From NCBI GenBank assembly GCA_048941265.1, contig JBHLNT010000092.1, positions 1-15,953 on the forward strand: a stretch of 15,953 bases of DNA, read 5' to 3'. The notes beneath the pieces are model-generated. The model had not been told where the DNA came from. It saw only the letters and a program-made list of their open reading frames with translations, and made no database searches. Below, one piece after another: positions 365 to 14,916 of this stretch (position 1 is the first letter of the stretch; every line of letters begins with the position of its first letter). The translations under genes and the position numbers were made by a program. Source of the DNA: Promethearchaeota archaeon. Its GTDB lineage: Archaea; Asgardarchaeota; Lokiarchaeia; Sigyniarchaeales; SOKP01.

Positions 365-542
365 AAGTTATCACTATTTAAATGGTTTTTTGTACTTTTA
401 TAATTTCTGATTTTATTCATTGTATCATATTCAATTTTATAATTAAATTATAGTATTTTAAAAAACCTATTATGAAGACGTTTTTTTGTTAGAGATAATA
501 ATAGATTGGTGAATAATTAATCCTATATTCTTTAAAAACCCA

Positions 543-577
543 TCAGAAGGAGGCAAGCACGGCGGGAGGGAAGTAAT
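543..577. repeat. GC-rich intergenic repeat, copy 1
   Basis: tcagaaggaggcaagcacggcgggagggaagtaat; 31/35 identical to 8972-9006. Confidence 0.85.
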
Positions 578-630
578 AGAGTAAATTACAACTTTTTTAT
601 AGTTTCTAATTATCCTTCCATTTTTTTTCA

Positions 631-1017
631 TTAAAAATCTTGATATTTAATTTTAGATAAATAAGGTTTAAATTCTCCAATACTCTTAAAATCTTTAATT
701 TTTTTTTTTATTAAAATAGCACCAGCTTCGTTTTTTGTGTATTCTTCAGGATCAAGCTCAGTATCTAAAATAGTTTTAGAGGGATCTATTTCTTGTGATT
801 CAATTAATCTTTCCATCACCTCTTTTTTAAAAGTAATAGTAATTAAAGCAGCTAAAATTTCTCCTTCCTTTCCAAATACCTTACCATCTCTATAACGCAG
901 ATTACCGTTAATTATTATATAGTTACCAGGATATATATCTTCATGTTCCATAATAGTATTCCAAACTTTTTCAAAATCATTTTTTGAATTTATAATATGT
1001 ATCCATCCGTATACCAA
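631..1017 (-). CDS. Hypothetical 128-aa protein, candidate cognate immunity protein for the Ubl-nuclease
   Basis: TTG start with GGTGA 6 nt upstream. It lies directly downstream of and co-oriented with 1100-2347. The function is inferred from position only. Confidence 0.6.
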   Translation of the reverse strand: MVYGWIHIINSKNDFEKVWNTIMEHEDIYPGNYIIINGNLRYRDGKVFGKEGEILAALITITFKKEVMERLIESQEIDPSKTILDTELDPEEYTKNEAGAILIKKKIKDFKSIGEFKPYLSKIKYQDF

Positions 1018-1099
1018 ATTTTTTCACCAATTAATTATATATGATTTCGATAACGCAAATTCTATTAATAAAATTATTTTTTAACATTTTTTTTTTGTA

Positions 1100-2347
1100 T
1101 TATAATTTTCTCCAATTTTTATATGGTACATCTTTTGTCTCTATTGTAATTCCAGTTAGTTCTTTAAATTTATTAAATTCAGCAATAATATAATTTTGTC
1201 TTTCATGAGGTTCTTTGCTGTATGGTACTTCAATTAAATAATAACCTTCTATATTTTTGTCTTTAAACATATTACGTTTAAAATTATCTCTTCGTAATAA
1301 TTCTTGCCATTTTTTATAAAGCAGTTCATATTCAGTAGAACCAGCTTCTAGATTAAATTGTCTCGAGACTGCTTTATAAGCTTCAAATCCTATTTCCTCC
1401 TTAGGATCATGTTGTTGACCTTGAAATTCTATTGCAAGTTTAATATAATTACCATTTTTATCTTTGATATTTAATTCAAAATAACCATCAACATGAACAG
1501 CATGATGGATTCTGCCTTCTAACTCTGGAAATATTTTTATAAGGCTGTGTTCTGTTTTATAATTACCTTCAATATAACCTAAATAATCAAAAACATATTT
1601 AGCAATAGCATTTGTAATTTTCTGATTAACTAATCGACTATCACATATCGGACACGCCCCTATATTTCTTTCAATATTATGACGTGTATTCTCCCACACA
1701 TGCCCGCATGGATCTCCATTCTTTTTAGCACCATGTTTCCATTCTAGAATTGCATATCTTTTTGGAACTCCATTTTTTAGTTTTTTTAAGGCTTGTTTAA
1801 ATTCAAATTCATCGGATATTAATATTAATCCTTTTTCTTCTGCTAAATTTAGAGCTTTATTATATTCTGCTAGTTCTTTTGAATCTAATATTGGGCGATT
1901 TAAAATTTTCGCCTGAGCGGCTTCAAAAGTATTAACACCATAGTGAGTTTGGAAGGATCTTTTAATTAATTCTTCATCTCCATCAAAAAGTTTAAATAAT
2001 TCTTCTTTCGTGAGACCTTCTTTGATCAATTTCTCAACTCTTTGTTTTTTGAATACGGGGGCAGAACCTGCTTGTTCACCTATTACCATAATAACATCAT
2101 CAGGTTTAAGGCGAAGTTCGGCAATTTTCATGGAGTTAGGTATCACTTTTCCGTTGATAATAAACTTATAATCTAAAATTTGGTTGAGTTCAAGTTCATT
2201 TATAATATCTTCCTTAATGTCTTCAAAGCTAGCTTTTGAATTTTCGATGGCGATTGCTCTTATTGCTTGACCTGGAGAAGCTCCTACAATTCTAAAATTA
2301 ATGGTTTTTCCATTGTTTTCGGATAGGAAATTTACCCTTCCATTCAC
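1100..2347 (-). CDS. Ubl-domain fusion with Zn-ribbon and PD-(D/E)xK (DUF559/Vsr-like) nuclease; candidate toxin
   Basis: GTG start with GGTGA 4 nt upstream. Residues 1-95 show a beta-grasp pattern (F.I.NGK.I...I.EL.L...D.I.VI.EQAGS). CGHVW...CPIC is a Zn ribbon. HVDGYFEL...LAIEFQGQQH...RDNFKR...LIEVPY are restriction-fold nuclease motifs. Confidence 0.75.
   Translation of the reverse strand: MNGRVNFLSENNGKTINFRIVGASPGQAIRAIAIENSKASFEDIKEDIINELELNQILDYKFIINGKVIPNSMKIAELRLKPDDVIMVIGEQAGSAPVFKKQRVEKLIKEGLTKEELFKLFDGDEELIKRSFQTHYGVNTFEAAQAKILNRPILDSKELAEYNKALNLAEEKGLILISDEFEFKQALKKLKNGVPKRYAILEWKHGAKKNGDPCGHVWENTRHNIERNIGACPICDSRLVNQKITNAIAKYVFDYLGYIEGNYKTEHSLIKIFPELEGRIHHAVHVDGYFELNIKDKNGNYIKLAIEFQGQQHDPKEEIGFEAYKAVSRQFNLEAGSTEYELLYKKWQELLRRDNFKRNMFKDKNIEGYYLIEVPYSKEPHERQNYIIAEFNKFKELTGITIETKDVPYKNWRKL
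2298..2336. repeat. 39-bp perfect direct repeat, copy 1 (candidate attL)
   Basis: ttaatggtttttccattgttttcggataggaaatttacc, identical to 13096-13134. Confidence 0.85.
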
Positions 2348-2370
2348 GTTTTCACCGGATTTCAGAGAGA

Positions 2371-2378
2371 TTTAAATA
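2371..2378. promoter_or_regulatory. Archaeal TATA box in the 72-bp divergent intergenic region
   Basis: TTTAAATA (TATTTAAA on the minus strand). The same octamer occurs in the paralogous intergenic region at 13169-13176. Confidence 0.55.
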
Positions 2379-2419
2379 CTTGTGTCCCGTTCATTTCGTA
2401 AAAAGCTATATGGAAAAAA

Positions 2420-2938
2420 ATGAGGAAGAAAATGAAAACAAAAGGAGAGAAGTACAATTATGTATACATGCAATTTGCGGTTTCTCCAAGTGAGAGAAAT
2501 TTGATAAAATCAATGGCAGAAAAGGAAAGATATAAAACGACTTCTGAATTTTTAAGAAGACTTATTTTTGATTATATCAGAAGAGAAGAGAATCCCGAAC
2601 TTATCAATGGTACCAATGATGGCAATTTAAATTCAATTATTTTAGAAGATATCTCAAAAAATATCAGAGAAGCTCTGAAAAACCAGGAAATCATACTGGA
2701 CCGGGAGGACGCATTTGAACAGATGAGAAAAATGGTAGTAAATATCCATAAACTCGTTGAGGCAGGTTCGTTAGAGGAAGAACGTAATATTATCACTCAG
2801 TTGTTAAAAGAACATAATTCTCTTACTATACATATGATTCAAGAAGAAACTGGATTACCCAAAGATGTAATCTTCAAAATTATTTCCGATATGAACATTT
2901 TTAAATTAACTACAACAGGGAGGTTTACCCTCCGATGA
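2420..2938 (+). CDS. Ribbon-helix-helix + coiled coil + winged-HTH DNA-binding protein
   Basis: N-terminal YMQFAVSPSERNLIKSMAEKERYKTTSEFLRRLIFDYI is CopG/RHH-like. C-terminal LTIHMIQEETGLPKDVIFKII...TTTGRF is wHTH-like. ATGA overlap with the integrase; paralog of 13208-13726. Confidence 0.75.
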   Translation: MRKKMKTKGEKYNYVYMQFAVSPSERNLIKSMAEKERYKTTSEFLRRLIFDYIRREENPELINGTNDGNLNSIILEDISKNIREALKNQEIILDREDAFEQMRKMVVNIHKLVEAGSLEEERNIITQLLKEHNSLTIHMIQEETGLPKDVIFKIISDMNIFKLTTTGRFTLR

Positions 2939-3849
2939 CTAAAGTCACCAATCAACAAATCATCGATCGTTATTTGGATAGGTTTAAACACTCCAAGCCA
3001 TCAGTAGCGTCTAGAAAATACTCACTTCAATATTTCTTCCAGGATCGGTATTTTGGCTATAAGGGTCATGTATTTGATATTAAAAAGCAGGATGTTATAG
3101 ATTACTTTGATTATTTGAATGACTTGGACACAATCTGCTTAGTAACCAAGGAACATAAATGGACTTATTTTAGAACATTTCTAAAATTTGTAATGGAGTA
3201 TTACGATGATTTTATCATTGTAATTCCCCATTATAGTATAAAGTGGAAACCGATTCATAAAAAACCTGATTCTAATAAAGATGTTGTGATGAGTAAAGAT
3301 GAAGTAAAACAAATTTTGGAACATTCATATCAGCATAATTACCAATATTACATCATGGTTCGTCTTTTAACAGAAACGGGGATGCGCCGTGGAGAGCTCC
3401 TCAGCATTAATACTCAAGATGTAGACGTTAAAAGAAGATTTATAGAAACCCAAGGAAAAACGGGAAGGAATGTTTATTATTATTCAATAGGACTAGCGAA
3501 GCATTTAACCATCTATTTAAAAGAGAGAATATTAAAGGATGTTCCCAATGAAGCACTATTTCTCTCAAAATATAAGGAAAGGTATTCACCCCGCTCTATA
3601 AATAATTATTTATCCAATTGTACGGACCGATTAAATATCAATAAGCGGATTTCAACCCACACCTTTAGGAGAACATTAAATACATTAAGAAAATTGATGG
3701 GATGTCCTAGTGAAGACCGTAAAATTCTATTATGTCATAAGGTCAATGACGTGAATTTCAGCTGTTATGTGAAGTTGAATTACAATGACTATATTAATCT
3801 CTATGATAAATGGAACCCCTACAAAAACTTATTTGAATCCAGTTCGTGA
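2935..3849 (+). CDS. Tyrosine recombinase/integrase (XerC/D-like fold)
   Basis: Full catalytic set visible: ETGMRRGEL (R), QGKTG (K), HTFRR (HxxR), LLCH (H), SCYVK (Y). 304 aa including an N-terminal core-binding region. Confidence 0.95.
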   Translation: MTKVTNQQIIDRYLDRFKHSKPSVASRKYSLQYFFQDRYFGYKGHVFDIKKQDVIDYFDYLNDLDTICLVTKEHKWTYFRTFLKFVMEYYDDFIIVIPHYSIKWKPIHKKPDSNKDVVMSKDEVKQILEHSYQHNYQYYIMVRLLTETGMRRGELLSINTQDVDVKRRFIETQGKTGRNVYYYSIGLAKHLTIYLKERILKDVPNEALFLSKYKERYSPRSINNYLSNCTDRLNINKRISTHTFRRTLNTLRKLMGCPSEDRKILLCHKVNDVNFSCYVKLNYNDYINLYDKWNPYKNLFESSS

Positions 3850-3868
3850 AACATCACTCTTTGCAAAC

Positions 3869-3887
3869 AGCGCCGGTATCCGGCGCT
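3869..3887. other. GC-rich hairpin downstream of integrase 1 (terminator or recombination-related)
   Basis: agcgccgg-tat-ccggcgct is a perfect 8-bp stem. A third arm, gcgccgga, lies at 3896-3903. Confidence 0.5.
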
Positions 3888-4063
3888 ACTCAAGGGCGCC
3901 GGAAAGTCCCACAATGATAAATGTAGGACAATATTAGTTCAATTATCTGGATTAAGTTATTCTCCGCACGTGTTAGTATTATATTATATATAATAAAATT
4001 CCGTATAAAAAAAATTAGGAGCGTTGGAGGATTCTATTTAATTTTTCGATCAAATTATAACCG

Positions 4064-4261
4064 TCAGGTTTGGGGATTATCGAAATATTCATCAATAAAA
4101 TGAGTTTTAGACTGCTTAATTATCTTCCATGCTTTAATTAGGTCTTTTTGTAGCCTCTTCCTCTGTAAGTTATCTTTTTTCAATTGAACCAATAATTTAG
4201 CTCGCTTTAAACGTTTCTGATCAAACCATTTTCTAAAGTTTTTTTTCTCTTCGTTGCTCAT
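4064..4261 (-). CDS. Small basic hypothetical protein
   Basis: 65 aa, ATG start, K/R-rich and helical; 23 nt downstream of 4285-4707. Confidence 0.55.
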   Translation of the reverse strand: MSNEEKKNFRKWFDQKRLKRAKLLVQLKKDNLQRKRLQKDLIKAWKIIKQSKTHFIDEYFDNPQT

Positions 4262-4284
4262 CGAAGTGTAATCTAAAATGTCTA

Positions 4285-4707
4285 TTAATCCCTCAACTCA
4301 AATTTGTAATCTGTACTGAAATCTCCTCCCAGCTTTTCCATAGTAAACTTATGTGTATTTAAATTTTCGAAATTAGACACTAAGAATTGGGCAAATTTCT
4401 GTGATGCTTTATTACCTAATTCCAAAAAACAAATATTATCACCTTTAATCGAGGGAATTCTTCCATGGTTCTTTTCATTTGTCATCTTAATATAATATAA
4501 TATTGTTCTAGTCGTAATCTCGAAGTCCATGAATTCAATGGCAAATTGCCATCTTGCACCTGTTAGTTTGCCATCATAAGTTTTTTCTATAAGCATTGGT
4601 GGTTGATTAATATCTAGAAGATGGAAGCTATATTTAATTCCACTAGAAATGGGGATGAAAATGCCATTTTCAATTTTTAAATCATTTAACTGCTTTAAAT
4701 ATTCCAT
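4285..4707 (-). CDS. Hypothetical protein, possibly a phage-type OB-fold ssDNA-binding protein
   Basis: 140 aa, beta-rich. C-terminal FTMEKLGGDFSTDYKF resembles the (R/K)xGxG..T.Y motif of gp32-like SSBs. AAAGGA lies upstream of the ATG. Confidence 0.45.
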   Translation of the reverse strand: MEYLKQLNDLKIENGIFIPISSGIKYSFHLLDINQPPMLIEKTYDGKLTGARWQFAIEFMDFEITTRTILYYIKMTNEKNHGRIPSIKGDNICFLELGNKASQKFAQFLVSNFENLNTHKFTMEKLGGDFSTDYKFELRD

Positions 4708-4778
4708 TATTCCTTTCTCCGATTTTTATTTTTTCTTTGTTCGATTGTAGTTATGATAAAATCTATTAATTTTATTAA

Positions 4779-4812
4779 TAGTACAAACTAATGTATTTAA
4801 CTTTTTGTACTA
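4779..4812. promoter_or_regulatory. Inverted repeat (operator-like) upstream of 4285-4707
   Basis: tagtacaaa-N16-tttgtacta; the spacer contains the TATA-like tatttaa. Confidence 0.45.
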
Positions 4813-5474
4813 CACAAGCCATGTAACTAATTTTAATTATGATTGCATAATGCTTTCCTTTTACAAAGTAAATAATCTAATGAATCCTTTTTGATAAAAC
4901 TGAACGGAAATGTAAATCTTTTGAGAATTGGTCTATTGATTCACGAAAATTGAATGTAGTGTAAATCTTAATTGCCGTACGAAAACAGTACTTCAAGAGA
5001 AATCTGTTGATCTCTATATAGAATTAACAAAACTCAAGTAGTATTTTAACTCGTAGTGTCAAAGAGCGTACTTAATCTCTCAAAAAGTGAATTTATTTTT
5101 GTGCGTACATTGTAGGGACAACTTCTTATAATATTAATTTCGGATGATAGGAGTTTCACGAAAAAAATGTTCTTTTTGAATTTTCACGTTTACATAAAGC
5201 ACGGAAAATTGGTTTTATTTAGCAATATTAACCCGATCTTGATTGCGAAGATTTTTAATAATCTTTTTTTTTGTTTATTATAATGTTATCAAAAATATAT
5301 CTCTTAATGAAATTAAGAAAAAAACATTGTTATATAAAAGATTATTATTTGAGTGAATGCTAACTTTTTGTGCTGATAATGTTTCAAATGTATGGAAAAA
5401 ATTTGAGGATACGAAATAAGTGAGCAAATGCTCTTTAATATAGAATTTAGAGAGGTATAAGGTGAAGAACAAAT

Positions 5475-6191
5475 ATGACTGAACCAGAGTCAAATAAGGA
5501 AGAAATGAGTATTGATTTAAATCCAGAATTCAGATTTATGATGACTATGAATTTAGATGTATTTTTTAAGTCATGTAAAGTCAACTTTTTTGTCGAAACG
5601 GCACGCGACCGATTCATAATATGGTATCAAACGCCGGACCGTCAAATTTACAGCCCTCTAATGATTACCTTTAAACAAGTCCTAAGAGGTGATTTAACTC
5701 ACAAGCATTGCGATTTGAGGTACAAAATAAGGGGTAATTTGATTTCGATATTCAAGAAATGGTATCCCGAAATGAACATTAAAAAATATCAGAATGAAAT
5801 CGTGGAAAAATTCGCATTTCAAATTAATAATTTAGCCCTTAATTTTATTGAAGCTAGACAACAAATTGAACTTGAACTCGGACCGCTTCCCCAAGCTTTT
5901 TCAACTTTTCTAGAAATTAATTTGCCCAAAACGAGCGAAAGATTAGATATCATTGATAGGAACGCGCTAAAAATGTACAATGAAAAAGCCCAAGCCAACC
6001 GATGGTTAAAAATTAGAGATCTTGATGAGTTGGCATATTATATATCACAAAAACTCCCCGAATATAAATGTAGCGCCGCCCGAAAGGTCTATCGAGACAT
6101 AAATGAAATTAGGCAAAGAAGAAAGATAGTTATGTGCGATTTTCAATCCATCGCCAATGAAATCAGCAATAGATTAGATCAATTAAAGTAG
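5475..6191 (+). CDS. Hypothetical 238-aa protein
   Basis: ATG with GGTGA upstream (aaggtgaagaacaaatATG). No family recognised. Confidence 0.7.
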   Translation: MTEPESNKEEMSIDLNPEFRFMMTMNLDVFFKSCKVNFFVETARDRFIIWYQTPDRQIYSPLMITFKQVLRGDLTHKHCDLRYKIRGNLISIFKKWYPEMNIKKYQNEIVEKFAFQINNLALNFIEARQQIELELGPLPQAFSTFLEINLPKTSERLDIIDRNALKMYNEKAQANRWLKIRDLDELAYYISQKLPEYKCSAARKVYRDINEIRQRRKIVMCDFQSIANEISNRLDQLK

Positions 6192-6239
6192 TGATCCTCC
6201 CATCTTATCATGGAATTAGTGAAGAAAACCAAGAAATGT

Positions 6240-6412
6240 AAATGGCGTTTTAAAACAAAAAAATTAAAAAAAAATTGCGGGAATAACATTTCATTTTTTC
6301 AACAAAAAATCATTACTCATACAAAAAATTAAAAAAATTGTTATCATTAAAAAATACCCTAGATGTGATATTTTCCATTCTTTTTTTTTTTCTTAACTTG
6401 AAAACGCCATTT
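6240..6412. repeat. 173-bp segment bounded by 12-bp perfect inverted repeats
   Basis: aaatggcgtttt (6240-6251) and aaaacgccattt (6401-6412), with an internal A-tract direct repeat at 6255-6277 and 6321-6340. Confidence 0.55.
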
Positions 6413-6531
6413 TAAACTAGAGGGCTTGGTTCATTATTCTAATCTAGTTACTGTTATTTGATAAAAAGATAAAATACATATTTTTGAATCATTTTTTATA
6501 TATTGAAAATAAATTCTACTTGTGAATAATA

Positions 6532-7194
6532 ATGAAAATTGAATCTTATGAACCATTCCACATTGGATCTAAATTCATTTACTATGTCGATAAAGCTCAT
6601 TTACTAGCAAAATTATATGAGTACTACGTAACTAATAAGGATAAAGGTTTTGAATTATATTCTGATATTCCTAGAGGAGATCAGCCTTTTTTACCCATTC
6701 TTAATATCTTATCAAATCCTAAAGAAAAATTAACCCTTCAAATGAATCTTACTGCTAACGCATTAAATGTTATTGGTAATGATCCAAAAAAGGTAGTAGA
6801 ATTCTTTATTAAATTAATGAGAAATTTACCAGATTTAGGTTTTGAATTAGATTCAACATTTACTTTTTATGAAATTCTTACAAATATAATATTATTATTA
6901 GACGCAGAAGATAAGACCCCTGTTGAGATATTTAATAAATTTTCTTCAAATATTTTTGAAAACCTAGAAGATCTTCCAAATTTAAATGTAAATTATATTA
7001 GATTTTCAGACGAACTAGTATCAAAAGAAAGTGACGAGCGATTTAATTTTGAAATAATCCCTAATCAAACTAGTCCAAATAAGAGAATTATTTTAAAAAT
7101 TCTTAAAAGAGTTAAAGATTATCAAGAATTAATAAAGTTCCAAGAAAGATTAAATAATATAGTACAAAAGATTTTTGAAAAGTTGGTGAAATAA
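6532..7194 (+). CDS. Hypothetical 220-aa alpha/beta protein, first gene of a three-gene operon
   Basis: ATG start; its stop abuts the next ATG (TAAATG). Only vaguely reminiscent of TIGR04255-like proteins. Confidence 0.7.
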   Translation: MKIESYEPFHIGSKFIYYVDKAHLLAKLYEYYVTNKDKGFELYSDIPRGDQPFLPILNILSNPKEKLTLQMNLTANALNVIGNDPKKVVEFFIKLMRNLPDLGFELDSTFTFYEILTNIILLLDAEDKTPVEIFNKFSSNIFENLEDLPNLNVNYIRFSDELVSKESDERFNFEIIPNQTSPNKRIILKILKRVKDYQELIKFQERLNNIVQKIFEKLVK

Positions 7195-7932: not shown

Positions 7933-7945
7933 GGTTAATTAAAGA

Positions 7946-8449
7946 ATGGAAATTGATATTGATAAGTTAAAAGAAAGTTCTTTGGAATTTAATAAAAAAT
8001 TACGGCTTCCTATAAATACATTAAATATAAAAATCGAAGATAATTGGAAGAATTTTACAAATTTCATATCTGAATTGATTGAAATTGATTCAGGTCGCAA
8101 ATTTAAGACTGAATTAAGTATGGTCCTAATCGACACGGGTAATGAAGCTAATTTCATTGTAATGAGTGCTTATTATCTTAATACCTTTAAATCTAAAATT
8201 AAGGAAATCGATTTAGAACAAAAAATAATAGAAGATTTTGTAGGTAATGAAAGATTGACTGAGGTAACAACTGAAAGTTTTGAATTTAAGATTTTTAATG
8301 CTCTTTTTAAATCGAAAATTGGTTTTACTTACCAAACGAATGTTAATGCATTGGATATCATTAATGTAGGGATTAATGCTATTCGACAATATCTTAATTT
8401 GATTTTTTTAGCTGGTTCTAAAAATTACTATTATTGTTCTAATATCTGA
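7946..8449 (+). CDS. Retropepsin-like (clan AA) aspartyl protease
   Basis: Catalytic motif VLIDTG and a C-terminal hydrophobic-Gly motif IINVGINAIRQY. Confidence 0.7.
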   Translation: MEIDIDKLKESSLEFNKKLRLPINTLNIKIEDNWKNFTNFISELIEIDSGRKFKTELSMVLIDTGNEANFIVMSAYYLNTFKSKIKEIDLEQKIIEDFVGNERLTEVTTESFEFKIFNALFKSKIGFTYQTNVNALDIINVGINAIRQYLNLIFLAGSKNYYYCSNI

Positions 8450-8476
8450 TTGGAACCAAGAAATCCCTTAGAAGAA

Positions 8477-8504
8477 TCAGAAAAAGGAAAGCATAGTGGG
8501 AGGG
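8477..8504. repeat. GC-rich intergenic repeat, copy 2 (degenerate)
   Basis: tcagaaaaaggaaagcatagtgggaggg; 22/28 identical to 543-570. Confidence 0.65.
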
Positions 8505-8563
8505 TGTCCATAAATTAAAATAAAGGAGTATTTTAAATTAGCATATACTTAAATTTTAAAAAT

Positions 8564-8905
8564 CTAAAAATCAATTTCCATTTCTCTATATTGAAAGTAT
8601 TTTTCAAGGAATAGATCTAAACAACAAATTACTATTTTTCCTTTAGTATCTTCATTGATATTAAAATATTCTTGGTTGTTATCTAATAATGGGATTATTA
8701 TTTTATTTTTGATATAATTTAAAAACTCATCTGAAAAGAAATGATCTACTACTATCCTTTTATTATAATATTGCTTAATGAAATCATTGATAATATCCTC
8801 TTGATTTTTAGTTGGATTTTCTTCAATATTATCGATAAAACGCTCAATGAAACTGAAAATGCGTTCCCTAACAGGTTCTTCAAATTCTGGATGTAATTTT
8901 TTCAA
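8564..8905 (-). CDS. Acidic helical hypothetical protein, candidate orphan immunity cassette
   Basis: 113 aa, TTG start with GAGATGA upstream, flanked on both sides by the GC-rich repeat. Confidence 0.6.
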   Translation of the reverse strand: MKKLHPEFEEPVRERIFSFIERFIDNIEENPTKNQEDIINDFIKQYYNKRIVVDHFFSDEFLNYIKNKIIIPLLDNNQEYFNINEDTKGKIVICCLDLFLEKYFQYREMEIDF

Positions 8906-8971
8906 TTTTTCATCTCTAGTTATTATTATATTGTTTTAAATAATACAACAGATAAGATAAATTAATATTTT

Positions 8972-9006
8972 TCAGTTGGAGGCAAGCACGGTGGGAGGGA
9001 GGTAAT
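8972..9006. repeat. GC-rich intergenic repeat, copy 3
   Basis: tcagttggaggcaagcacggtgggagggaggtaat. Confidence 0.85.
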
Positions 9007-9023
9007 GGAAAGATAAGATGTAA

Positions 9024-9836
9024 TTAGTAATAAAAAAATCCCACGGACCTTTCAAACTCATTAAGCATTTGAATTACTTCGGCAGAAAATTTCTTCTTTA
9101 ACTCAGGATTGAATTCTAAAAGTTTTAATTTTTTTAGATTCTTCAAAGTTAAGGGTAAGTTAGATATTTTATTATATCCAAAATTAAATTTCTGTAAGTT
9201 CTTCAAATTTCCTATTGAATCATGAATTAACTCGATATTATTATAAGAAATATTAAACACTTCTAGGTTTTCTAAGTTCCAAATTGAAGAAGGTAAGTCG
9301 TTTAAATTGTTATACATCAAATTTAATTTTTTTAAAGCTTTCAAATTGCCAATTGATTCAGGGATTTTTTTTAAATTATTATAAGATAGATCTAAGTATT
9401 GGAGATTTTCTAATTGATTTATTGATTCTGGTAGGAATTCTAATTTATTACGTTCTAAAATTAATGCTTTTAAATTTTTAAATTTGGATATATCTTGGGG
9501 GATAATATCAATTTGATTTCCGGATATATCTAAGACAGTAAGATCTTTTAATTCAAGGATTTCATCAATAAAGCGGTTTAATTCAAGAGATACTAAAACT
9601 AAATGTTTTATTCTCCCGTCTCTAACATTTATTCCATTTAGAAGCCCTTGACCTATGATTTCAAATTCTATTTCTCTTTCATCCTTTCCAGATTCAATTT
9701 CATATAAATATAAATCATTTGGATTCTGAAATTCATTCTTTTTTAATAAGACAATATTTCTTCCAATTTTTTTTTCCAAAATTTTCAGAATTTCATAATC
9801 CCTTTCATTTAATAAAATATTCATAAAATTTTTCAT
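9024..9836 (-). CDS. Leucine-rich repeat protein (23-aa repeats)
   Basis: About 6-7 LxxLxLxxNxLxxLPxSIxNL repeats. The start is probably the ATG at 9836 (GAGATGG upstream) rather than 9869. Confidence 0.9.
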   Translation of the reverse strand: MKNFMNILLNERDYEILKILEKKIGRNIVLLKKNEFQNPNDLYLYEIESGKDEREIEFEIIGQGLLNGINVRDGRIKHLVLVSLELNRFIDEILELKDLTVLDISGNQIDIIPQDISKFKNLKALILERNKLEFLPESINQLENLQYLDLSYNNLKKIPESIGNLKALKKLNLMYNNLNDLPSSIWNLENLEVFNISYNNIELIHDSIGNLKNLQKFNFGYNKISNLPLTLKNLKKLKLLEFNPELKKKFSAEVIQMLNEFERSVGFFYY

Positions 9837-10006
9837 TTTTACCATCTCTATATGTAGCTTAGTAATCAATAATCTATTAAGAACCTATTATTTTTATTAA
9901 AAAAAACTGTTTATACTTCTCGTACATTAATTACTCTAGGTATCTTTATTTGTGGATAATATTGTTCAAATAAATCTAAAGAATACAGGCAAGAATCACA
10001 GAGCAA

Positions 10007-10026
10007 GCAAGCACGGCGGGGAGGGA
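10007..10026. repeat. GC-rich intergenic repeat, copy 4
   Basis: gcaagcacggcggggaggga, the core of copy 1 with one extra G. Confidence 0.8.
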
Positions 10027-10131
10027 AATATAGAATAAATATAGAAAAGAGTGAATTATTATTAAAAATTTAATATTTATTCAGGATTCATCAAAAAATG
10101 AGTATTGAAAGAATTGAAATCTGCTAAAAAA

Positions 10132-11469
10132 TTATAAATCATAATAGTGACGCCACCATTTTAATCTATCCTCTTCATTCTCCAAATCTGGATTTAAATA
10201 AAAGTATTTTTCATAAGGTTCTAACTCTTCTTTTGGAATTAGGGGATCATTATAAAAATCTTTTCTCAACACAATATATTGAATACTTTCAAGTACCTCC
10301 AAACCCTTAGTGCTTGTAATGAGGTTTCCACATAAATAAATTTCCTCAAGATTGTGAAGGGCTTCTAAACCAGAAATTTCCTTGATTTGATTATGGGTGA
10401 GATCTAATTTTTCTAAATCCTTTAAATTCTCTAATCCTTTTATCTCTTTTATCTTGTTATGGTCAAGAATTAAATATTTTAGGTTAGAAAGTGCGTTTAA
10501 ACCCTTGATTTCATTAATTTCATTTTCTCCAAGATCTAAAGAAACTAGTTTTACACACTTATCTAATTTACCAATCTCTGAAATATTATTCCCAACTAAT
10601 AATAAAGAATTGAGCTCTGATAGCGTTTCAAGCCCACTTATTTCATTAATTTGATTATAATGCAAGTATAAAAATTCTAAGAGATTCTGAGATTCAAGCC
10701 CTTGAATCTTTTTAATACTATTATTTCCAATTCTAAGATCTTTTAGGTTAATAAGAGTTTTTAATCCCTTGAGTTCTTTAATTCGGTTATTATTCAAGTA
10801 AAATTCCCTTAAATTAGTTAAATCTTCGATATTCTTGATTTCCTCAATTTGATTATGGCTAAGGTGTAATTCTCTTAACTTCTTCAAGTGTTGGATTCCC
10901 TTAATTTGTGTGATGTTATTGTGGCTTAAATATAAGAATTCTAATTGATTTAGATTTTCAAGTCCCTTGATCTCCTTAATTTGATTATAATTAAAAGATA
11001 TTTTTTCTAAATTCCTGAGATTTTCAAGTCCCTTAATTTCCTCGATTTTATTTCCAGATAGTTCTAAAATTGTTAAGTTTTTAAGATTTTCAAGTCCGCT
11101 AATATTTTTAACCTGATTATTATTTAAACTCAGATACTTAAGCTTGGAGAGATTTTCAATTCCAGTCATCTCCTCAATTTTATTATTATATAAGTACAAA
11201 TATTCTAAATTTTTAAGGTTTTCAAATCCTTTAATTCTTTTTATCATATTATCATTTAAGGATAAACTTTTAAGATTCACAAGTGTATCGAGACATTGTA
11301 CTTTTGAAATGTGATTGTGATGAAGACTTAAGCCCTTTAATTCCTCAAGTGATTCCAAACCCTCAATTTCGGAAATGGTCTTAATCTCCCTATCATTTAG
11401 AAGCAATTCACCTTGATTAACATATACCTTGTGTCCTTTTATAGTTACATAATCTCTATTTCTTTCCAT
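10132..11469 (-). CDS. SDS22/internalin-like LRR protein (22-aa repeats), candidate cognate immunity protein
   Basis: Roughly 16-17 LxxLxLxxNxIxEIKGLENL repeats. ATG with GAGATG upstream; 65 nt downstream of the Ubl-deaminase gene. Confidence 0.92.
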   Translation of the reverse strand: MERNRDYVTIKGHKVYVNQGELLLNDREIKTISEIEGLESLEELKGLSLHHNHISKVQCLDTLVNLKSLSLNDNMIKRIKGFENLKNLEYLYLYNNKIEEMTGIENLSKLKYLSLNNNQVKNISGLENLKNLTILELSGNKIEEIKGLENLRNLEKISFNYNQIKEIKGLENLNQLEFLYLSHNNITQIKGIQHLKKLRELHLSHNQIEEIKNIEDLTNLREFYLNNNRIKELKGLKTLINLKDLRIGNNSIKKIQGLESQNLLEFLYLHYNQINEISGLETLSELNSLLLVGNNISEIGKLDKCVKLVSLDLGENEINEIKGLNALSNLKYLILDHNKIKEIKGLENLKDLEKLDLTHNQIKEISGLEALHNLEEIYLCGNLITSTKGLEVLESIQYIVLRKDFYNDPLIPKEELEPYEKYFYLNPDLENEEDRLKWWRHYYDL

Positions 11470-11534
11470 TTAAATTACATCTCGAGAATATTTTATTCTT
11501 AAAACGCTTACATATTATAAAAATCTTTTTTACT

Positions 11535-13136
11535 CTATAGGAACATGTAATAAAAACTAATTTCAGGATACATCTCTCTAAGATTATTCTCAAATTTATT
11601 AATATTTTCATTGCAATTAGGACAAAAAGACTCCTCTGATGTAAGAACAATGGTTCCTGCGTCTATATCATCCATCAGCAAGTTCTCTAAATTAATAATA
11701 GATATTCTCTCTCCACATAGCGGATTAAAATATCTATCATCGGGCTGTTCTTCTAAGCTGTTTATGATATATTCTTTTCCTGTATCTGGATCTTTAGCCA
11801 ACCATTCAACGGGATATCTTTTTGAATAGTAGTTCGAATAAATATATACTAAACCCATTCTCGTTGCATCAGGGACGCGCAATCCAGGAATGGGAGTTTT
11901 ACTAGAACGAGTTACCGTAATTCCTAAATTAACAGAACCTCCTGGTTTTTCAAATTCAAAATAGGTTAGAGTGAATTTTCCACCTATCAAATTTCCCCTA
12001 TATCCTCTCATAATTTTATCATTGGTTACTTTATCTCTATCTTTTAATTGTTTGACGACATCATCGTTAGCCCCAAAATTAAAATTATCCCTAAGAAATT
12101 CATTTAAATCATTTATCATGGTTTGTTTGGAATTCTTATCGCCAATAAGATTTATAATTTGGGCACGAGCACCAGGGTAATCATAGATATCCTGAAATTC
12201 AATTCGTCCATCTTGATTTCTCGTTTCTTTCAAAAGTTTTTTAAAATGATTATCAATAAGTTTTCCGACCTTCCCTGGTAAATTCTCTTTGAAATCTAGT
12301 ACGATACTTTTTAAGTAAGATAATTCATAAACTCCAAGTTCTGTGGGATTTTTAAGAATATCCATAATATTAAAATCTGTTGCACTTTGTATGGCACCAT
12401 CTTCAGTTTTTATAAATTTCCTGAAACCTTCGTTTCTAAGCTCGTTATTCAATTCAATAAAACTAACGAAATTCTCATCATTTGCATCTGAATATAAAAA
12501 GGCTATTTCCTTAAACATTTCAAATAATTCTCTTGAATTATCAGAAATTAATTCTTGTTCAATAAGTAAATCTGTGATTTTATCTATAACTTGTTGTTTT
12601 TGCCCTTCAATATTACCTAGATCAAACCCTAGTCTCCTAGCCATAGTACTATCGATCTTACAAATATGATACATTACTTCAAGGATTAGATTGAGTTTAC
12701 CTACATCATTTGCATCCTGGAATCTGTTTATAAAGCCATTTTCTGAATTACTCCAATAATTTCTATCTCCTGTTATTTCTCTGAAAAAGTTGGTAATTCC
12801 ATATCTATAATCAAATATTGAATTTATCTCATAAGCAATAACTCCAAGTTCGCCTCCTTCGCCTAGGTGTTTGGAGATTACAGTAATGATATCCTTTTTA
12901 AGATTAAAACCGAGTTCTTTCAGCGTTTTTACATCAGTAATTAATTTTCCGTTGAAAATTATTTCAATATCTAAGAGGGGGTTGAGTTTAAGCTGATTTT
13001 GAATTTCATTCTTGATATCTTTTATATTGGCTTTAGAATTTTCGATGGTTATAAGCTTGATAGCTTGGTCCGGAGCAACTCCTAATTGTCTAATTTTAAT
13101 GGTTTTTCCATTGTTTTCGGATAGGAAATTTACCAT
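11535..13136 (-). CDS. Ubl-domain fusion with helical linker and C-terminal Zn-dependent deaminase-like toxin domain
   Basis: Residues 1-95 are about 53% identical (46/86 by manual alignment) to the Ubl of 1100-2347 and end in LGEGG. The C-terminus LCGERISI...GTIVLTSEESFCPNC...INKF...MYPEISF fits the toxin-deaminase signature. Confidence 0.7.
   Translation of the reverse strand: MVNFLSENNGKTIKIRQLGVAPDQAIKLITIENSKANIKDIKNEIQNQLKLNPLLDIEIIFNGKLITDVKTLKELGFNLKKDIITVISKHLGEGGELGVIAYEINSIFDYRYGITNFFREITGDRNYWSNSENGFINRFQDANDVGKLNLILEVMYHICKIDSTMARRLGFDLGNIEGQKQQVIDKITDLLIEQELISDNSRELFEMFKEIAFLYSDANDENFVSFIELNNELRNEGFRKFIKTEDGAIQSATDFNIMDILKNPTELGVYELSYLKSIVLDFKENLPGKVGKLIDNHFKKLLKETRNQDGRIEFQDIYDYPGARAQIINLIGDKNSKQTMINDLNEFLRDNFNFGANDDVVKQLKDRDKVTNDKIMRGYRGNLIGGKFTLTYFEFEKPGGSVNLGITVTRSSKTPIPGLRVPDATRMGLVYIYSNYYSKRYPVEWLAKDPDTGKEYIINSLEEQPDDRYFNPLCGERISIINLENLLMDDIDAGTIVLTSEESFCPNCNENINKFENNLREMYPEISFYYMFL
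13096..13134. repeat. 39-bp perfect direct repeat, copy 2 (candidate attR)
   Basis: Identical to 2298-2336; offset 10,798 bp. Confidence 0.85.
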
Positions 13137-13168
13137 TTCATCTCAAAAATCACTAAAAACACAAAGAG

Positions 13169-13176
13169 TTTAAATA
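13169..13176. promoter_or_regulatory. Archaeal TATA box in the 71-bp divergent intergenic region
   Basis: TTTAAATA, conserved with 2371-2378 while the flanking sequence diverges. Confidence 0.55.
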
Positions 13177-13207
13177 ATGCCGAAGCTTGTGTGCGATATA
13201 ACAAGAT

Positions 13208-13726
13208 GTGATTAATATGAAAGAAAAACAAAAGTCAACCAAAAGCAGCTACGAATACAGATACATTCAATTCGTTGTCAGTCCGAAAGAAAAGGAAAAG
13301 ATTGAGGAATTTATGACAAAGGAAAATTTTAAGACACAGAGCGATTTTATTAGGAGGATTATCTTTACGCACATTCGCAAACAAGAAAACCCTGAACTAT
13401 TCATCTCAAGCAATGATTCAAATATAAATCCAATTGTACTTGAAAGGATTGCAAAAAATACAAAAGAAATTCAAGAACTCATATCACAGAGAGAAGATTC
13501 ATTAGAAGAAATGAGACAAATGGTTTTAAATTTACATAAGCTCGCCGAACAAAACGCCTTAGCAAAAGAAAGAGAAATTATTATAAAACTATTAGAAAAA
13601 CACACTTCATTATCACTTAGACAAATTGAAGAAGAAACTGGTTTAGCCGAAGATGTAGTCTTTAAAATCATATCCGATATGAATATATTTAAAATTACAA
13701 CATCAGGTAGATTCGCATTACGATAA
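13208..13726 (+). CDS. RHH + wHTH DNA-binding protein, paralog of 2420-2938
   Basis: YIQFVVSPKEKEKI...KTQSDFIRRIIF (RHH). C-terminal EEETGLAEDVVFKIISDMNIFKITTSGRFALR is nearly identical to copy 1. The start may be the ATG at 13217. Confidence 0.75.
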   Translation: MINMKEKQKSTKSSYEYRYIQFVVSPKEKEKIEEFMTKENFKTQSDFIRRIIFTHIRKQENPELFISSNDSNINPIVLERIAKNTKEIQELISQREDSLEEMRQMVLNLHKLAEQNALAKEREIIIKLLEKHTSLSLRQIEEETGLAEDVVFKIISDMNIFKITTSGRFALR

Positions 13727-14634
13727 CTAATCAGCAAATTATTGACAGGTATTTACAGAGGTATAAGCATTCAAAATACTCAGTATATTCCCGCAAATAT
13801 GCACTCGGCTATTTTTTTGAATCAAGATACTTTGGTTTTGAAGATCATGTATTTAATATAAAGAAACGTGATGCAATTGATTATTTCGACTATTTAAACC
13901 ATAAAGAAGACCTCTGTCTTGTAAGTAAAATGAATAAGTGGAATTATTTTAGATCATTTCTCCAATTTTGCATGGAATATTACGATCTGGTAGTGGTTAT
14001 CCCTAAATATTCCGTGAACTGGAAGCCACTTCACAAAGAAGCTGATTCTAACAAAGATGTGGTAATGACTAAAGAAGAAGTAAAACGGATACTTAAGCAC
14101 AATTTAAACTATAATTATTATTACTATATTCTTTTAAGAATATTAACCGAAACAGGCATGCGTGTTGGGGAATTTCTCAGCATTGACATTGAAGATGTGA
14201 ACGTGGATAAACGATATGTTGAAACTCAAGGGAAGACAGGAAGGAAGATCTACTACTTCTCAAACGGATTAGCCAAACACTTAGCAATCTATCTGAAAGA
14301 ACGGGAATTGAAAGACTGTGAATGCAAAGCGTTGTTCCTTTCCATCCAGCGACAAAGATACAGACGCAGGAGCATTAATAATTATATACAAAGATGCGTT
14401 AGGAAAATAGGGATCGACAAGCGGATTTCATGCCATACTTTTAGACGAACCTTAAACACGCAGAGGAAAAAGATGGGATGCCCAAAAGAGGATAGGAAAA
14501 TCCTACTCTGTCATAAAGTCAGCGATGTCAATTTCCAATGCTATGTAAAGCTCAACTATGATGATTACATCCGCTTATATGACAAATGGAATCCGTATAA
14601 AAACATCTTAGACGGTAGATCTCGGAATATTTAG
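13723..14634 (+). CDS. Tyrosine recombinase, paralog of 2935-3849; full-length frame begins at ATA 13723
   Basis: The frame is open for 69 codons upstream of ATG 13930 (ITNQQIIDRYLQRYKHSKYSVYSRKYAL...) and matches the N-terminus of integrase 1. Catalytic ETGMR, GKTG, HTFRR, LLCH and CY are intact. Confidence 0.9.
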   Translation: MTNQQIIDRYLQRYKHSKYSVYSRKYALGYFFESRYFGFEDHVFNIKKRDAIDYFDYLNHKEDLCLVSKMNKWNYFRSFLQFCMEYYDLVVVIPKYSVNWKPLHKEADSNKDVVMTKEEVKRILKHNLNYNYYYYILLRILTETGMRVGEFLSIDIEDVNVDKRYVETQGKTGRKIYYFSNGLAKHLAIYLKERELKDCECKALFLSIQRQRYRRRSINNYIQRCVRKIGIDKRISCHTFRRTLNTQRKKMGCPKEDRKILLCHKVSDVNFQCYVKLNYDDYIRLYDKWNPYKNILDGRSRNI

Positions 14635-14916
14635 TTTTTATTAAAATACAGCTATATATTATTATTTTTTCTTTTTTTATTGCTATTTATTATATCAGTC
14701 TATTTTAGAAGTGACTAATGTAATATAACTGTGAGCTGAACCATACCCCCCTTCTTCGATTTTCTGTTCAAAAAGCATTCTTTTTGTAGATGGGGGTGAC
14801 TGAGCTGGTCTGTGGATTGATGGCATTTTTTTTAAGAAAAAGTGTATTAAAATTCATTAATTATAAAATTCCGCTAATATTTTTAAAAAAAAAAGGAAAA
14901 TAAAGATTTTAATCTG

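Follow-up and report, generated by a model that had tools for sequence, protein, structure and literature searches.

How did a tyrosine recombinase come to stand beside two genes that begin alike and end differently? This question is raised by a 15,953-nt stretch of Lokiarchaeial DNA (contig JBHLNT010000092.1 of assembly GCA_048941265.1), referred to below as the window, which is a whole contig (analysis label C31; G, L and C numbers denote genomes, fetched loci and contigs, respectively). The window has a G + C content of 24–34%, and its source genome comprises 5.0 Mb in 361 contigs and is 91% complete. The map of open reading frames (ORFs) contains two modules of like build, each consisting of immunity genes, then a gene for a putative toxin with a ubiquitin-like domain (Ubl), facing a gene for a ribbon-helix-helix and winged helix-turn-helix (RHH-wHTH) protein and a gene for an Xer-like tyrosine recombinase. 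An earlier note, made from the sequence alone, had proposed an integrase-linked toxin system that is defined by the Ubl as an N-terminal trafficking tag. The analysis reported here makes it quite likely that the two genes encode toxins accompanied by immunity proteins, and places their link to the recombinase in a short leader ahead of the Ubl. On balance the window is read as two tandem Lokiarchaeial integrative elements, whose toxin/immunity cassettes would be swapped by site-specific integration at this leader.

The recombinase unit and the leader repeats

The two paralogous modules described in the earlier note were recovered by the ORF layout and by pairwise comparison. RHH1 and RHH2 share 54% identity over 172 aa and the recombinases Int1 and Int2 share 68%, and the DNA repeats D2, D3, and D5 (71–79% identity, approximately 10.8 kb apart) confirm that the module was duplicated. 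The two Ubl proteins, X1 and X2, resemble each other just as far as had been stated, namely over aa 5–96 and 2–94, respectively (51% identity, E 3e-22), with no other significant match. Each gene is followed by a co-oriented gene, and these two genes are mutually unrelated: p128 belongs to no Pfam family, and LRR445 is a leucine-rich repeat (LRR) protein with an LRR_4 match.

In Pfam searches RHH1 matched NikA-like (E 8.7e-5) and RHH_1 (E 0.026) domains, both below the cut-off, and its C-terminus gave only weak helix-turn-helix-type matches. Homologs were found in 24 of 161 genomes of the class, all within one family, with a patchy distribution over the genera and up to four copies per genome, a pattern typical of a mobile element. 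Int1 was recognized as an integrase by Pfam (Phage_integrase, E 2.5e-21) and PHROGs (PHROG 1, E 2e-30), and stayed far below the cut-offs for XerA (80 vs. 220 bits) and the integron integrase TIGR02249 (42.8 vs. 265 bits). Int2 is not truncated at its N-terminus: the N-terminal coding region is intact and in frame, with 66% identity to Int1 aa 4–95, but the ATG overlapping the RHH2 stop codon is replaced by ATA (13723–13725).

A short toxin-like gene facing an RHH-recombinase pair recurs in other genomes, in agreement with the earlier note. These genes encode proteins of 448 aa with an HNH-like tip (L102), 449 aa with an HExxH tip (L103), 576 aa with an S24-like domain and a deaminase-like tip (L104; Toxin-deaminase, E 0.0045), and 410 aa with an S24 domain and an HNH-like tip (L116), and LRR genes often come next. 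Toxin-deaminase matches in the tips of related elements had E-values of 0.0014–0.0045. The Ubl is not part of this conserved arrangement. A Ubl profile matched none of ten recombinase-adjacent toxin ORFs outside the window (L102_448, L103_449, L104_576, L116_410, and the metagenome ORFs of at least 100 aa in L150, L151, L155, L156, L159, and L167), and genome G168, which with six Ubl toxins is the richest one, has no RHH homolog. The prediction that such Ubl genes would each stand beside the RHH and integrase genes was thus not upheld.

A leader is what the RHH-facing genes have in common. The peptide NGKVN(F/S)..S..N forms the start of X1, X2, and the corresponding genes of L102, L103, L104, and L116. 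At the DNA level, a core of approximately 45 nt is conserved at eight junctions with unrelated downstream sequence, and is preceded by an A/T box approximately 30 nt upstream, which may be the promoter of the toxin gene. Of 12 assessable genome loci, 9 have the leader at a distance of 42–77 nt from the RHH start, and the other three (L106, L064, and L107) showed no leader by the RHH gene; L117, which is cut by the contig end, is outside this count. Metagenomes yielded 27 contigs with an RHH relative, 22 of them with upstream sequence, and the leader was present in 17 of the 22 (one of these, with three mismatches, is doubtful). Overall the leader adjoins the RHH gene in 26 of 34 loci, always at a spacing of 42–77 nt. 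In the 17 metagenome loci the leader opens into a long ORF in seven cases, runs off the contig in one, and meets a stop after 14–37 codons in nine. Four of the seven long ORFs carry an S24-like motif in the N-terminus (L150, L151, L165, and, more loosely, L155). In six of the nine short-leader loci an unrelated converging gene comes next (L152, L154, L166, L169, L171, and L174), no ORF was found in L153 and L168, and L157 has divergent ORFs only. DNA similarity between the elements extends only 42–64 nt into the toxin ORF, so that the leader is to be counted as part of the RHH-recombinase unit. The link between toxin genes and recombinase is therefore real, and it runs via the leader and not via the Ubl.

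The leader is moreover repeated beyond the recombinase. Exact leader repeats of 16–39 nt surround the RHH-recombinase unit at distances of 3.7–10.8 kb in six loci: the window (39 nt, 10.8 kb), L104 (31 nt, 9.3 kb), L151 (30 nt, 6.3 kb), L157 (20 + 15 nt, 3.7 kb), L152 (18 + 14 nt, 5.1 kb), and L102 (16 nt, with approximately 75% identity over 60 nt; 6.9 kb). The perfect 39-nt run in the window is embedded in an alignment that is 50–75% identical, and the 5.0-Mb genome contains no copy of its 27-nt core other than the two in the window. The distal copies in L104 and L102 lie in frame within a long carrier ORF (1104 aa in L102), and there the tip, the immunity genes, and the cassette-end motif of the carrier ORF precede the other element genes. 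L151 is a tandem of two units built like the window, with S24-plus-nuclease tips and p128 homologs, and the elements of L152 and L157 are without a toxin and still flanked by leader repeats. An integrase beside flanking direct repeats is the signature of an attachment site. That the attachment site is the leader itself appears somewhat better than an even bet, as judged from the conserved spacing and the repeats.

Public sequencing runs that contain part of the window comprised five DNA runs of two studies, and no RNA run was listed. Contigs from four public runs laid on the window break at positions 2327 and 13125, as expected from the leader repeat. Joints in these contigs were considered as evidence for excision or circle formation and rejected, because their sides measured 21–34 nt in low-complexity sequence.

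Putative toxin tips, predicted immunity genes, and the ubiquitin-like domain

The variable part of X1 (aa ~165–415) contains two CxxC-type pairs, followed by D287 and the motif E307-x-Q309-G-x-Q312-H313 on two neighboring strands of the structural model. DUF4379, a treble-clef finger family, was detected with E 0.34 in X1 and 0.0011 in the protein P0005, both below the cut-off, and a comparison with a protein atlas led to DUF4379/DUF723/DUF559/DUF2726 clusters, mostly viral (0.92–0.94, 165–187 of 256 features). These features fit a zinc ribbon joined to a restriction-endonuclease-like nuclease of the PD-(D/E)xK type. A profile of the X1 family gave only chance-level matches against PDB sequences (best E 0.024, to gyrase B, in the linker). 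The X1-type tip is found behind a Ubl in X1, L067, and L069, behind an S24/S26-like barrel in 8 or 9 of 12 database homologs, and behind other N-termini in the rest; the barrel is marked by GxSM, GD-hydrophobic-F, and V-H motifs, which we take to be its catalytic boxes. The X1 homologs carry the source names Promethearchaeota, Lokiarchaeota, or Odinarchaeota, which bears out the Asgard origin assumed in the earlier note.

Homologs of p128 are encoded in 27 of 161 genomes of the class. In seven other loci (L123, L124, L127, L129, L130, L131, and L142) such a gene lies directly downstream of an X1-type end and in the same orientation, and in these loci the tip follows different N-terminal parts, including that of the 1,495-aa protein of L069. 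Modeling X1 aa 165–415 in complex with p128 gave a score of 0.82, with 0.00 for the best of three controls. A score of 0.82 was reached by 58 of 80 solved complexes and by 2 of 110 mismatched pairs, counts that hold roughly here because the model was built on custom alignments. Three runs scored 0.85, 0.82, and 0.00, with a contact agreement of at least 0% and a partner pLDDT (predicted local distance difference test) of at least 76. The modeled interface involves X1 aa 273–284 and 342–363, conserved nuclease positions by the putative catalytic strands. From its recurrent position and this model, p128 is predicted to be the immunity protein that neutralizes X1. It has no family match in Pfam, NCBIfam, PHROGs, or PADLOC, and would represent a new immunity family.

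A near-length homology search with X2 found only the protein itself. The sole relative of its C-terminal part in the class is a 537-aa ORF in G154 (30% identity), which likewise opens with a leader-like peptide and a stretch that terminates in ..IGGSG. Both proteins have conserved CxE and CxxC motifs spaced 31 residues apart. The atlas comparison of the X2 end pointed to Toxin-deaminase (PF14424) clusters of the BURPS668_1122 type (features 0.91, TM score 0.52), a lead only, by which this end may be a deaminase-like toxin. An LRR gene comes after the G154 relative as well. When its product was compared with nine LRR proteins, LRR445 ranked first (41% identity, in a collinear alignment that begins at the N-terminus), narrowly ahead of the second (40.5%). 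LRR445 is thus, as far as sequence comparison can tell, probably the protein that neutralizes X2. Together with the X1–p128 pairing, these observations agree with the toxin and adjacent immunity genes envisaged in the earlier note. The LRR proteins behind the toxins of the window, L071, L103, L104, and G154 are of two kinds. One consists of 22-residue repeats almost from the start (LRR445, the 278- and 289-aa proteins of L104, and the protein of G154), and in the other the repeats are preceded by a conserved “EEDY..L..LE...G” domain at the N-terminus (LRR281, the 340-aa protein of L103, and the 290-aa protein of L104).

Two further genes of the window, p113 and LRR281, look like orphan immunity genes. 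LRR281 has an LRR_8 match (E 4e-22), and a p113 homolog (40% identity) lies directly behind the Ubl-toxin gene of L071. On the L071 contig (G275:C234), a carrier-type ORF fragment (L071:1-1709) extends up to the leader of this 413-aa Ubl-toxin gene in another reading frame, with its stop codon overlapping the leader; a frameshift may have split a long form here. Also on this contig are a shortened recombinase and a ParE/antitoxin pair.

The predicted immunity genes share a sequence feature at their ends. A GC-rich repeat (family D6) lies 15–98 nt past the stop codons of p128, p113, LRR281, and LRR445, and a closely related C-rich motif of approximately 35 nt, with the gene-strand core CCTCCCTCCC..CCGTGGTGCC, is present in other genomes. 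A pattern search of 33 sources located this cassette-end motif in 18 places, 16 of them good (at most three mismatches), and 13 of the 16 good copies were situated 9–110 nt behind a co-oriented ORF of at least 60 aa. Four genomes contained 3–7 copies each vs. 0–1 for a reversed control pattern. The closed genome G188 has three copies only, two by an RHH remnant and one behind a nuclease/p128 pair. The motif was rejected as a genome-wide repeat, its 18-mer (at most three mismatches) occurring three times on C31 and once on one other contig. As the four motif regions fold no better than shuffled sequences on both strands (z-scores −0.33 to +1.49), attC-like hairpins were also rejected; no inverted repeat and no Rfam match was found in these regions. 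Possible roles of the motif are those of a terminator, a processing site, or a handle for recombination at the 3′ end.

The shared N-terminus of X1 and X2 gave sub-threshold matches to the Pfam ubiquitin family PF00240 (15.0 and 18.6 bits, respectively, vs. a gathering score of 25.4 bits), and this score was exceeded by relatives in L062 (30.2 bits) and L060 (28.9 bits). In the AlphaFold2 (AF2) model of X1 (mean pLDDT 88.4), aa 14–91 adopt the order strand-strand-helix-strand-strand-strand, and Foldseek matched the model to SUMO and ubiquitin with E-values from 5e-4 and TM scores by target of 0.64–0.79. The Ubl part of the X2 model has a pLDDT of 79–88. Judged by these models the domain is of the beta-grasp/ubiquitin fold, as the earlier note had supposed.

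A profile built from both window domains and a third copy in the same genome matched 137 of 400 genomes of the phylum, all in the class of the window (136 of the 160 other genomes of this class and 0 of 239 genomes of other classes). Most genomes of the class have one stand-alone Ubl gene of approximately 85 aa, whose product ends in ..QAGG plus 0–3 residues, as in ubiquitin-type modifiers. One such gene of 87 aa (G000:C323; L003:1480-1743, + strand) ends in ..QAGGI, and a ThiF (E1-like) gene is located 7 kb upstream on the same contig. The toxin-linked Ubl derives from this housekeeping, GG-ended paralog. Against 1.84 billion representative proteins the profile retrieved 194 at E ≤1e-3, including multi-repeat polyubiquitin-like proteins. 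When the best 150 of the 194 were re-scanned locally with the same profile, 111 exceeded the local threshold: 60 stand-alone proteins (≤135 aa), 24 with the Ubl near the N-terminus and at least 100 aa behind it, 4 with an internal and 9 with a C-terminal Ubl, 9 with several Ubl stretches, and 5 outside all five classes. Within these best 150, the 28 fused proteins with at least 100 aa behind the Ubl (3 of them polyubiquitin-like) fell into 20 post-Ubl sequence clusters, so that the predicted variety of C-termini was indeed found, and the GG tail is kept in 12 of 25 assessable fused Ubls. In the window the tails read ..QAGS (X1) and ..GEGG (X2). The host genome encodes six Prok-JAB and five ThiF proteins over the cut-offs, two of them forming adjacent pairs, and it is possible that the Ubl is cleaved in trans by this host machinery.

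Genome G168, of the same genus as the window genome, contains six large ORFs with a Ubl, which have a common pre-Ubl stretch and Ubl and diverge afterwards. L069 (1,495 aa) and L070 (1,593 aa) share 71% identity over aa 1–1082/1091 and are unrelated after the Ubl; both have two hydrophobic segments, and their Ubl lies at approximately aa 980–1060, right before the variable tip. L065, L066, L067, and L068 are likewise alike in the pre-Ubl stretch and Ubl (52–91% identity) and then different. The 770-aa protein of L061 shares 49% identity with that of L062 up to the Ubl and diverges beyond. The latter (G274:C1:39000-58900, ORF 2-10867) is at least 3,621 aa long and contains a single hydrophobic segment; its Ubl occupies approximately aa 2,780–2,860, about 750 aa before the ORF end; no other family was found in it. 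One of the G168 proteins (L066:7755-9629, − strand; G168:C48) has a weak LAGLIDADG_3 match at its end (E 2.3e-4, 21.8 vs. 22.5 bits), which would mean that a fold of the homing-endonuclease type serves as toxin tip.

In these long relatives (1,000–3,600 aa, with one or two hydrophobic segments and no known trafficking domain by Pfam), the Ubl is thus internal, between carrier and toxin, and in paralogs its place is taken by the S24/S26-like domain. Pfam Peptidase_S24 was over the cut-off in L116_410 (28.3 vs. 23.3 bits) and weak in four other relatives. Both domains occupy the same position, after the common short leader and before the variable part, which suggests that the Ubl serves in processing or docking of the tip rather than in export. 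The idea of a conserved N-terminal trafficking domain is therefore replaced by that of a pre-toxin module between carrier and tip, and any specific role assigned to the Ubl would be doubtful. In a Kyte-Doolittle scan (19-residue window, threshold 1.6) no hydrophobic segment was found in X1, X2, p128, or the LRR proteins, in line with the earlier note, which saw neither a signal peptide nor a membrane segment in the two Ubl proteins. Since X1 and X2 have no N-terminal trafficking domain, the window genes are regarded as stand-alone tip cassettes and not as full toxins.

Remaining features of the window

At the left end of the contig, a ParE-like gene and its antitoxin-like partner precede the first cassette (Table 1), and a homologous pair adjoins the recombinase in L071 (genome G275). 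The six cargo ORFs between the modules had no Pfam match at or above the cut-off and no homolog in the related loci fetched. Neither NCBIfam nor PHROGs gave a match for the four on the + strand, and PADLOC gave none for ORF 4285–4707; ORF 4064–4261 was searched against Pfam only. The gap between two cargo ORFs contains an inverted repeat (6240–6275/6377–6412) with 36-nt arms that are 78% complementary and 101 nt apart. A tRNA scan of the window found no tRNA, and Rfam reported one sub-threshold snoRNA-like match (28 vs. 60 bits) in the whole window and none at the cassette-end motifs. For ten proteins PADLOC gave no match, PHROGs recognized the integrase only, and the NCBIfam matches were restricted to generic Xer-type ones.

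Int2 is followed by a non-coding block that is conserved in other loci (L102:3905-4050, L103:1592-1738 and 14036-14170, L104:5857-5990, and L117:1452-1595). Its approximately 150–200 nt include a T-run and a short inverted repeat whose arms enclose a 6-nt spacer. The block is missing after Int1, where a GC-rich palindrome is found instead (3861–3915). Consensus folding of the block was weak (−10.7 kcal/mol, with an unfavorable covariation term). The block may act as a terminator or a recombination site, or encode a small RNA. The last gene of the contig, p324, belongs to a family of 490–505 aa (L102:4190-5665, L103:14274-15791, L151:7679-9157, and L152:7731-9248) whose members converge on the recombinase in L102 (86% identity), L103, L151, and L152. 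No family was assigned to it by Pfam, NCBIfam, PHROGs, or PADLOC, and it is probably a core gene of the element. Neither the RHH protein nor the p324 family had a relative among IMG/VR viral contigs.

Table 1. Coordinates of the features in the 15,953-nt window.
Feature	Position (nt)	Strand	Remarks
ParE-like toxin gene	3–176	-	cut by contig start; Pfam ParE_toxin E 9e-10, 39.4 bits vs. cut-off 23
Antitoxin-like gene, 66 aa	164–364	-	pairs with ParE-like gene
Cassette-end motif, copy 1	543–580	-	51 nt past p128 stop; repeat family D6
p128, 128 aa	631–1017	-	predicted immunity protein of X1 nuclease
X1, 415 aa	1100–2347	-	leader aa 1–12; Ubl aa 14–91 (nt 2075–2308); helical linker; putative zinc ribbon and PD-(D/E)xK-like nuclease aa ~165–415 (nt 1103–1855)
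Leader core copy 1, 39 nt	2298–2336	-	candidate attachment-site core; identical to 13096–13134
Divergent intergenic region X1/RHH1	2348–2419		A/T box ~30 nt before X1 start, conserved in 8-locus junction alignment
RHH1, 172 aa	2420–2938	+	N-terminal ribbon-helix-helix, probable C-terminal wHTH
Int1, 304 aa	2935–3849	+	Xer-like tyrosine recombinase; start overlaps RHH1 stop
Cargo ORF	4064–4261	-	
Cargo ORF	4285–4707	-	
Cargo ORF	5475–6191	+	
Cargo ORF	6532–7194	+	
Cargo ORF	7195–7932	+	
Cargo ORF	7946–8449	+	
Orphan cassette array	8477–10034	-	contains the next five features
Cassette-end motif	8477–8514	-	
p113	8564–8905	-	
Cassette-end motif	8972–9009	-	
LRR281	9024–9869	-	
Cassette-end motif	9997–10034	-	
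LRR445	10132–11469	-	predicted immunity protein of X2; LRR_4 E 4e-66
X2, 533 aa	11535–13136	-	leader; Ubl aa 11–90 (nt 12867–13106); helical middle; putative deaminase-like end aa ~370–533 (nt 11538–12029)
Leader core copy 2	13096–13134	-	identical to 2298–2336
RHH2, 172 aa	13208–13726	+	54% identity to RHH1
Int2	13723–14634	+	full-length recombinase frame; start codon ATA instead of ATG
Conserved non-coding block after Int2	14700–14850	+	common to L102, L103 (two copies), L104, L117
p324	14979–15953	-	C-terminal 324 aa of ~490–505-aa element protein; open at contig end

Explanations of the locus and comparison with known systems

The mechanism that is proposed for the two tandem elements would work as follows. 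The core of each element would consist of the promoter, the RHH-wHTH gene, and the Xer-like tyrosine recombinase gene, with the attachment site most likely in the leader, i.e., in the first ~15–20 codons of the toxin tips (NGKVNF...). A circular form, with the order promoter, leader, own tip, immunity genes, cargo, recombinase, and RHH, would recombine with the leader of a resident toxin gene. Since a toxin gene would be the target of integration, the incoming tip and immunity genes would be fused to whatever lay upstream, and the tip of the resident gene, now under the promoter of the element, would persist as a short expressed gene. Positions 2298–13134 of the window would accordingly represent one element, comprising X2, LRR445, LRR281, p113, the six cargo ORFs, Int1, and RHH1, which would have inserted into a second element, the one whose Int2 has lost its start codon, at the leader of the X1-p128 gene there. 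X1 would be neutralized by p128 and X2 probably by LRR445, each cassette being closed by the C-rich motif. That such elements also re-arm their host, by integrating within membrane-anchored toxin frames whose Ubl is read by the Asgard ubiquitin machinery, is an extension of this mechanism that is rather unlikely to hold. In this extension, a JAB-type protease would cut at the Ubl and set the tip free, or the Ubl would act as an inbuilt ubiquitin signal by which carrier and tip are sorted, for delivery, into vesicles made by the endosomal sorting complex required for transport (ESCRT).

Several observations weigh against this interpretation. The leader lacks the usual inverted arms around a 6–8-bp spacer, the two leaders of L102 are only ~75% alike, and neither an empty site nor a circular junction was seen in the contigs of the public runs. 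Homology between X1 and X2 spans the entire Ubl (over 200 nt, with 74% DNA identity), so that the leader repeats could also stem from gene conversion. On the side of the toxins, the AF2 model of X2 is poor outside the Ubl, with a pLDDT below 50 in the C-terminal half, and Pfam gave no deaminase match for this protein. In the fold searches with the complete X1 model, Ubl matches took up both lists, so that the nuclease fold is a putative one. LRR genes follow toxins of several kinds, and the specificity of the LRR proteins is thus unproven. The X1 Ubl ends in AGS and not in GG, which argues against classical deubiquitinase cleavage. Finally, the short forms X1 and X2 have neither signal peptide nor membrane segment, and a tblastn search (E 1e-5) of the window's own genome, at 91% completeness, found no long carriers or S24-type toxins, so that it is not apparent here how the toxins would leave the cell.

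The absence of an export signal in X1 and X2 and of a carrier gene in the genome would equally suit cassettes that act only within the cell, as addiction or abortive-infection modules of a mobile element, and the ParE/antitoxin pair on the same element and the conserved A/T box that the short forms have upstream of their own accord with this. Such an exclusively intracellular function is nevertheless considered unlikely, since the same tips and p128 end proteins of 1,100–1,500 aa with membrane helices (L069; 1104 aa in L102), orphan immunity arrays are typical of intercellular toxin systems, and PADLOC gave no match for the ten proteins searched. The Ubl as the conserved N-terminal trafficking or activation tag that defines an integrase-linked toxin system, i.e., the proposal of the earlier note, draws on the true ubiquitin fold at the start of both window toxins, the GG tail in 12 of 25 assessable fusions, and the Prok-JAB and ThiF proteins of the host. 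It is quite improbable in view of the ten other recombinase-linked toxin ORFs, none of which has a Ubl, the internal position of the domain behind membrane helices in the long forms, the S24/S26-like domain at this position in paralogs, the six Ubl toxins in a genome without RHH homolog, and the missing GG tail of X1.

Another possibility is that the recombinase is a bystander in a variable island where tips are swapped by homologous recombination via the leader and the cassette-end motif. Bacterial polymorphic tips do recombine with stand-alone cassettes (Zhang 2012, PMC3482391), and the homology over 200 nt between X1 and X2 and a leader without the classical shape of a core site are compatible with such an exchange. 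By contrast, the fixed distance at which the leader stands from the RHH gene (26 of 34 loci), the persistence of the leader beside the RHH-recombinase unit in nine loci without a toxin, and the leader repeats around the toxin-less elements of L152 and L157 speak for an involvement of the recombinase and make its role as a bystander improbable. The mostly viral DUF4379/DUF723/DUF559 proteins among the atlas neighbors of X1 aa 165–415 might suggest a selfish gene for a homing-type endonuclease, of phage or giant-virus type, in place of a toxin gene. The conserved partner p128 of X1 with a passing complex model, the fusion of the tip to carriers, Ubl, or S24-like domains, and its location in cassette arrays render this highly improbable.

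The preferred reading as two integrative elements thus describes what are probably Asgard polymorphic toxin/immunity cassettes with a Ubl pre-toxin module, which are carried and probably exchanged by elements targeting the toxin frame. Toxin-related parts in 24–27 of 161 genomes of the class would point to family-wide archaeal antagonism. The ubiquitin fold as a swappable module before toxin tips would be a new use of ubiquitin, and its occurrence in the position of a self-processing-type peptidase offers a testable link of ubiquitin recognition or cleavage to protein release or sorting in Asgard archaea. An integrase attachment site inside a toxin reading frame, if true, would provide a mechanism to diversify toxins and to gather immunity genes. 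Three parts that are new and clearly bounded, namely the leader, the cassette-end motif, and the p128 family, can serve to find further cassettes. In the literature searched, which did not include the survey by Makarova et al. (2019) or supplements, no paper was found that joins Asgard archaea, polymorphic toxins, and immunity proteins, and none that describes a Ubl or S24/S26-like pre-toxin module, the p128 family, the leader as an attachment site, or the cassette-end motif.

Polymorphic toxins are generally scarce in archaea (Zhang 2012, PMC3482391). With the bacterial systems (CDI, Rhs, MafB) as described there, the loci analyzed here share a long common N-terminal part, unrelated tips with putative nuclease, deaminase, or peptidase functions, and an immunity gene directly downstream, as well as stand-alone tip cassettes, orphan immunity arrays, a pre-toxin or peptidase module, and Imm-LRR, a named immunity class (PMC3482391). 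Pre-toxin domains or releasing peptidases sit before the tip in known polymorphic toxins, and XerC/D genes beside polyimmunity loci have been remarked on; the terms S24, LexA, and beta-grasp do not appear in the main text of that paper (Zhang 2012, PMC3482391). Unlike the bacterial toxins, those considered here have an Asgard host, no known secretion or trafficking domain, and a Ubl or S24/S26-like domain in the pre-toxin position, and in their short forms they are linked, at a constant distance, to a recombinase. A parallel to this coupling is rAID-1 of Bacteroidales, which, going by the preprint's description, is mobile and combines an Xer-type tyrosine recombinase and an immunity-gene array with intergenic repeats “reminiscent of integrons” (Ross et al., bioRxiv 10.1101/471110). 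An Xer-type recombinase, an immunity array, and a repeated intergenic motif are also present here. In rAID-1, as described, the recombinase is co-directional with an array of mainly orphan immunity genes, whereas here it is divergent, accompanied by an RHH-wHTH gene, and located by an intact toxin gene, and here the leader lies inside coding sequence and leader repeats flank the elements. An assignment to the aloposons was rejected, as these have giant twin genes and integrate at tRNA genes (Wu 2022, PMC8813620).

With integrons the window has in common a tyrosine recombinase that faces away from co-oriented cassettes, a conserved site beside the recombinase, and a motif at the 3′ ends of the cassettes. 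It was rejected as an integron on the basis of the low Int1 score (43 vs. 265 bits) and of a cassette-end motif that is conserved in sequence and forms no hairpin. A ubiquitin fold also precedes a second protein, in the same reading frame, in eukaryotic ubiquitin-fusion precursors and integral UBL-domain proteins. The Ubl fusions further resemble these in having a stand-alone paralog that ends in GG in nearly every genome of the class; they differ in that the partner is a toxin tip and that GG is present in only about half of the fusions and absent in X1. Some phages and integrative elements insert into a gene and carry a replacement for its 3′ end, with the integrase gene beside the attachment site and direct repeats at the flanks. 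Unlike in such gene-restoring elements, the piece brought along here would be a different tip together with its immunity gene, which would change the weapon rather than restore the gene.

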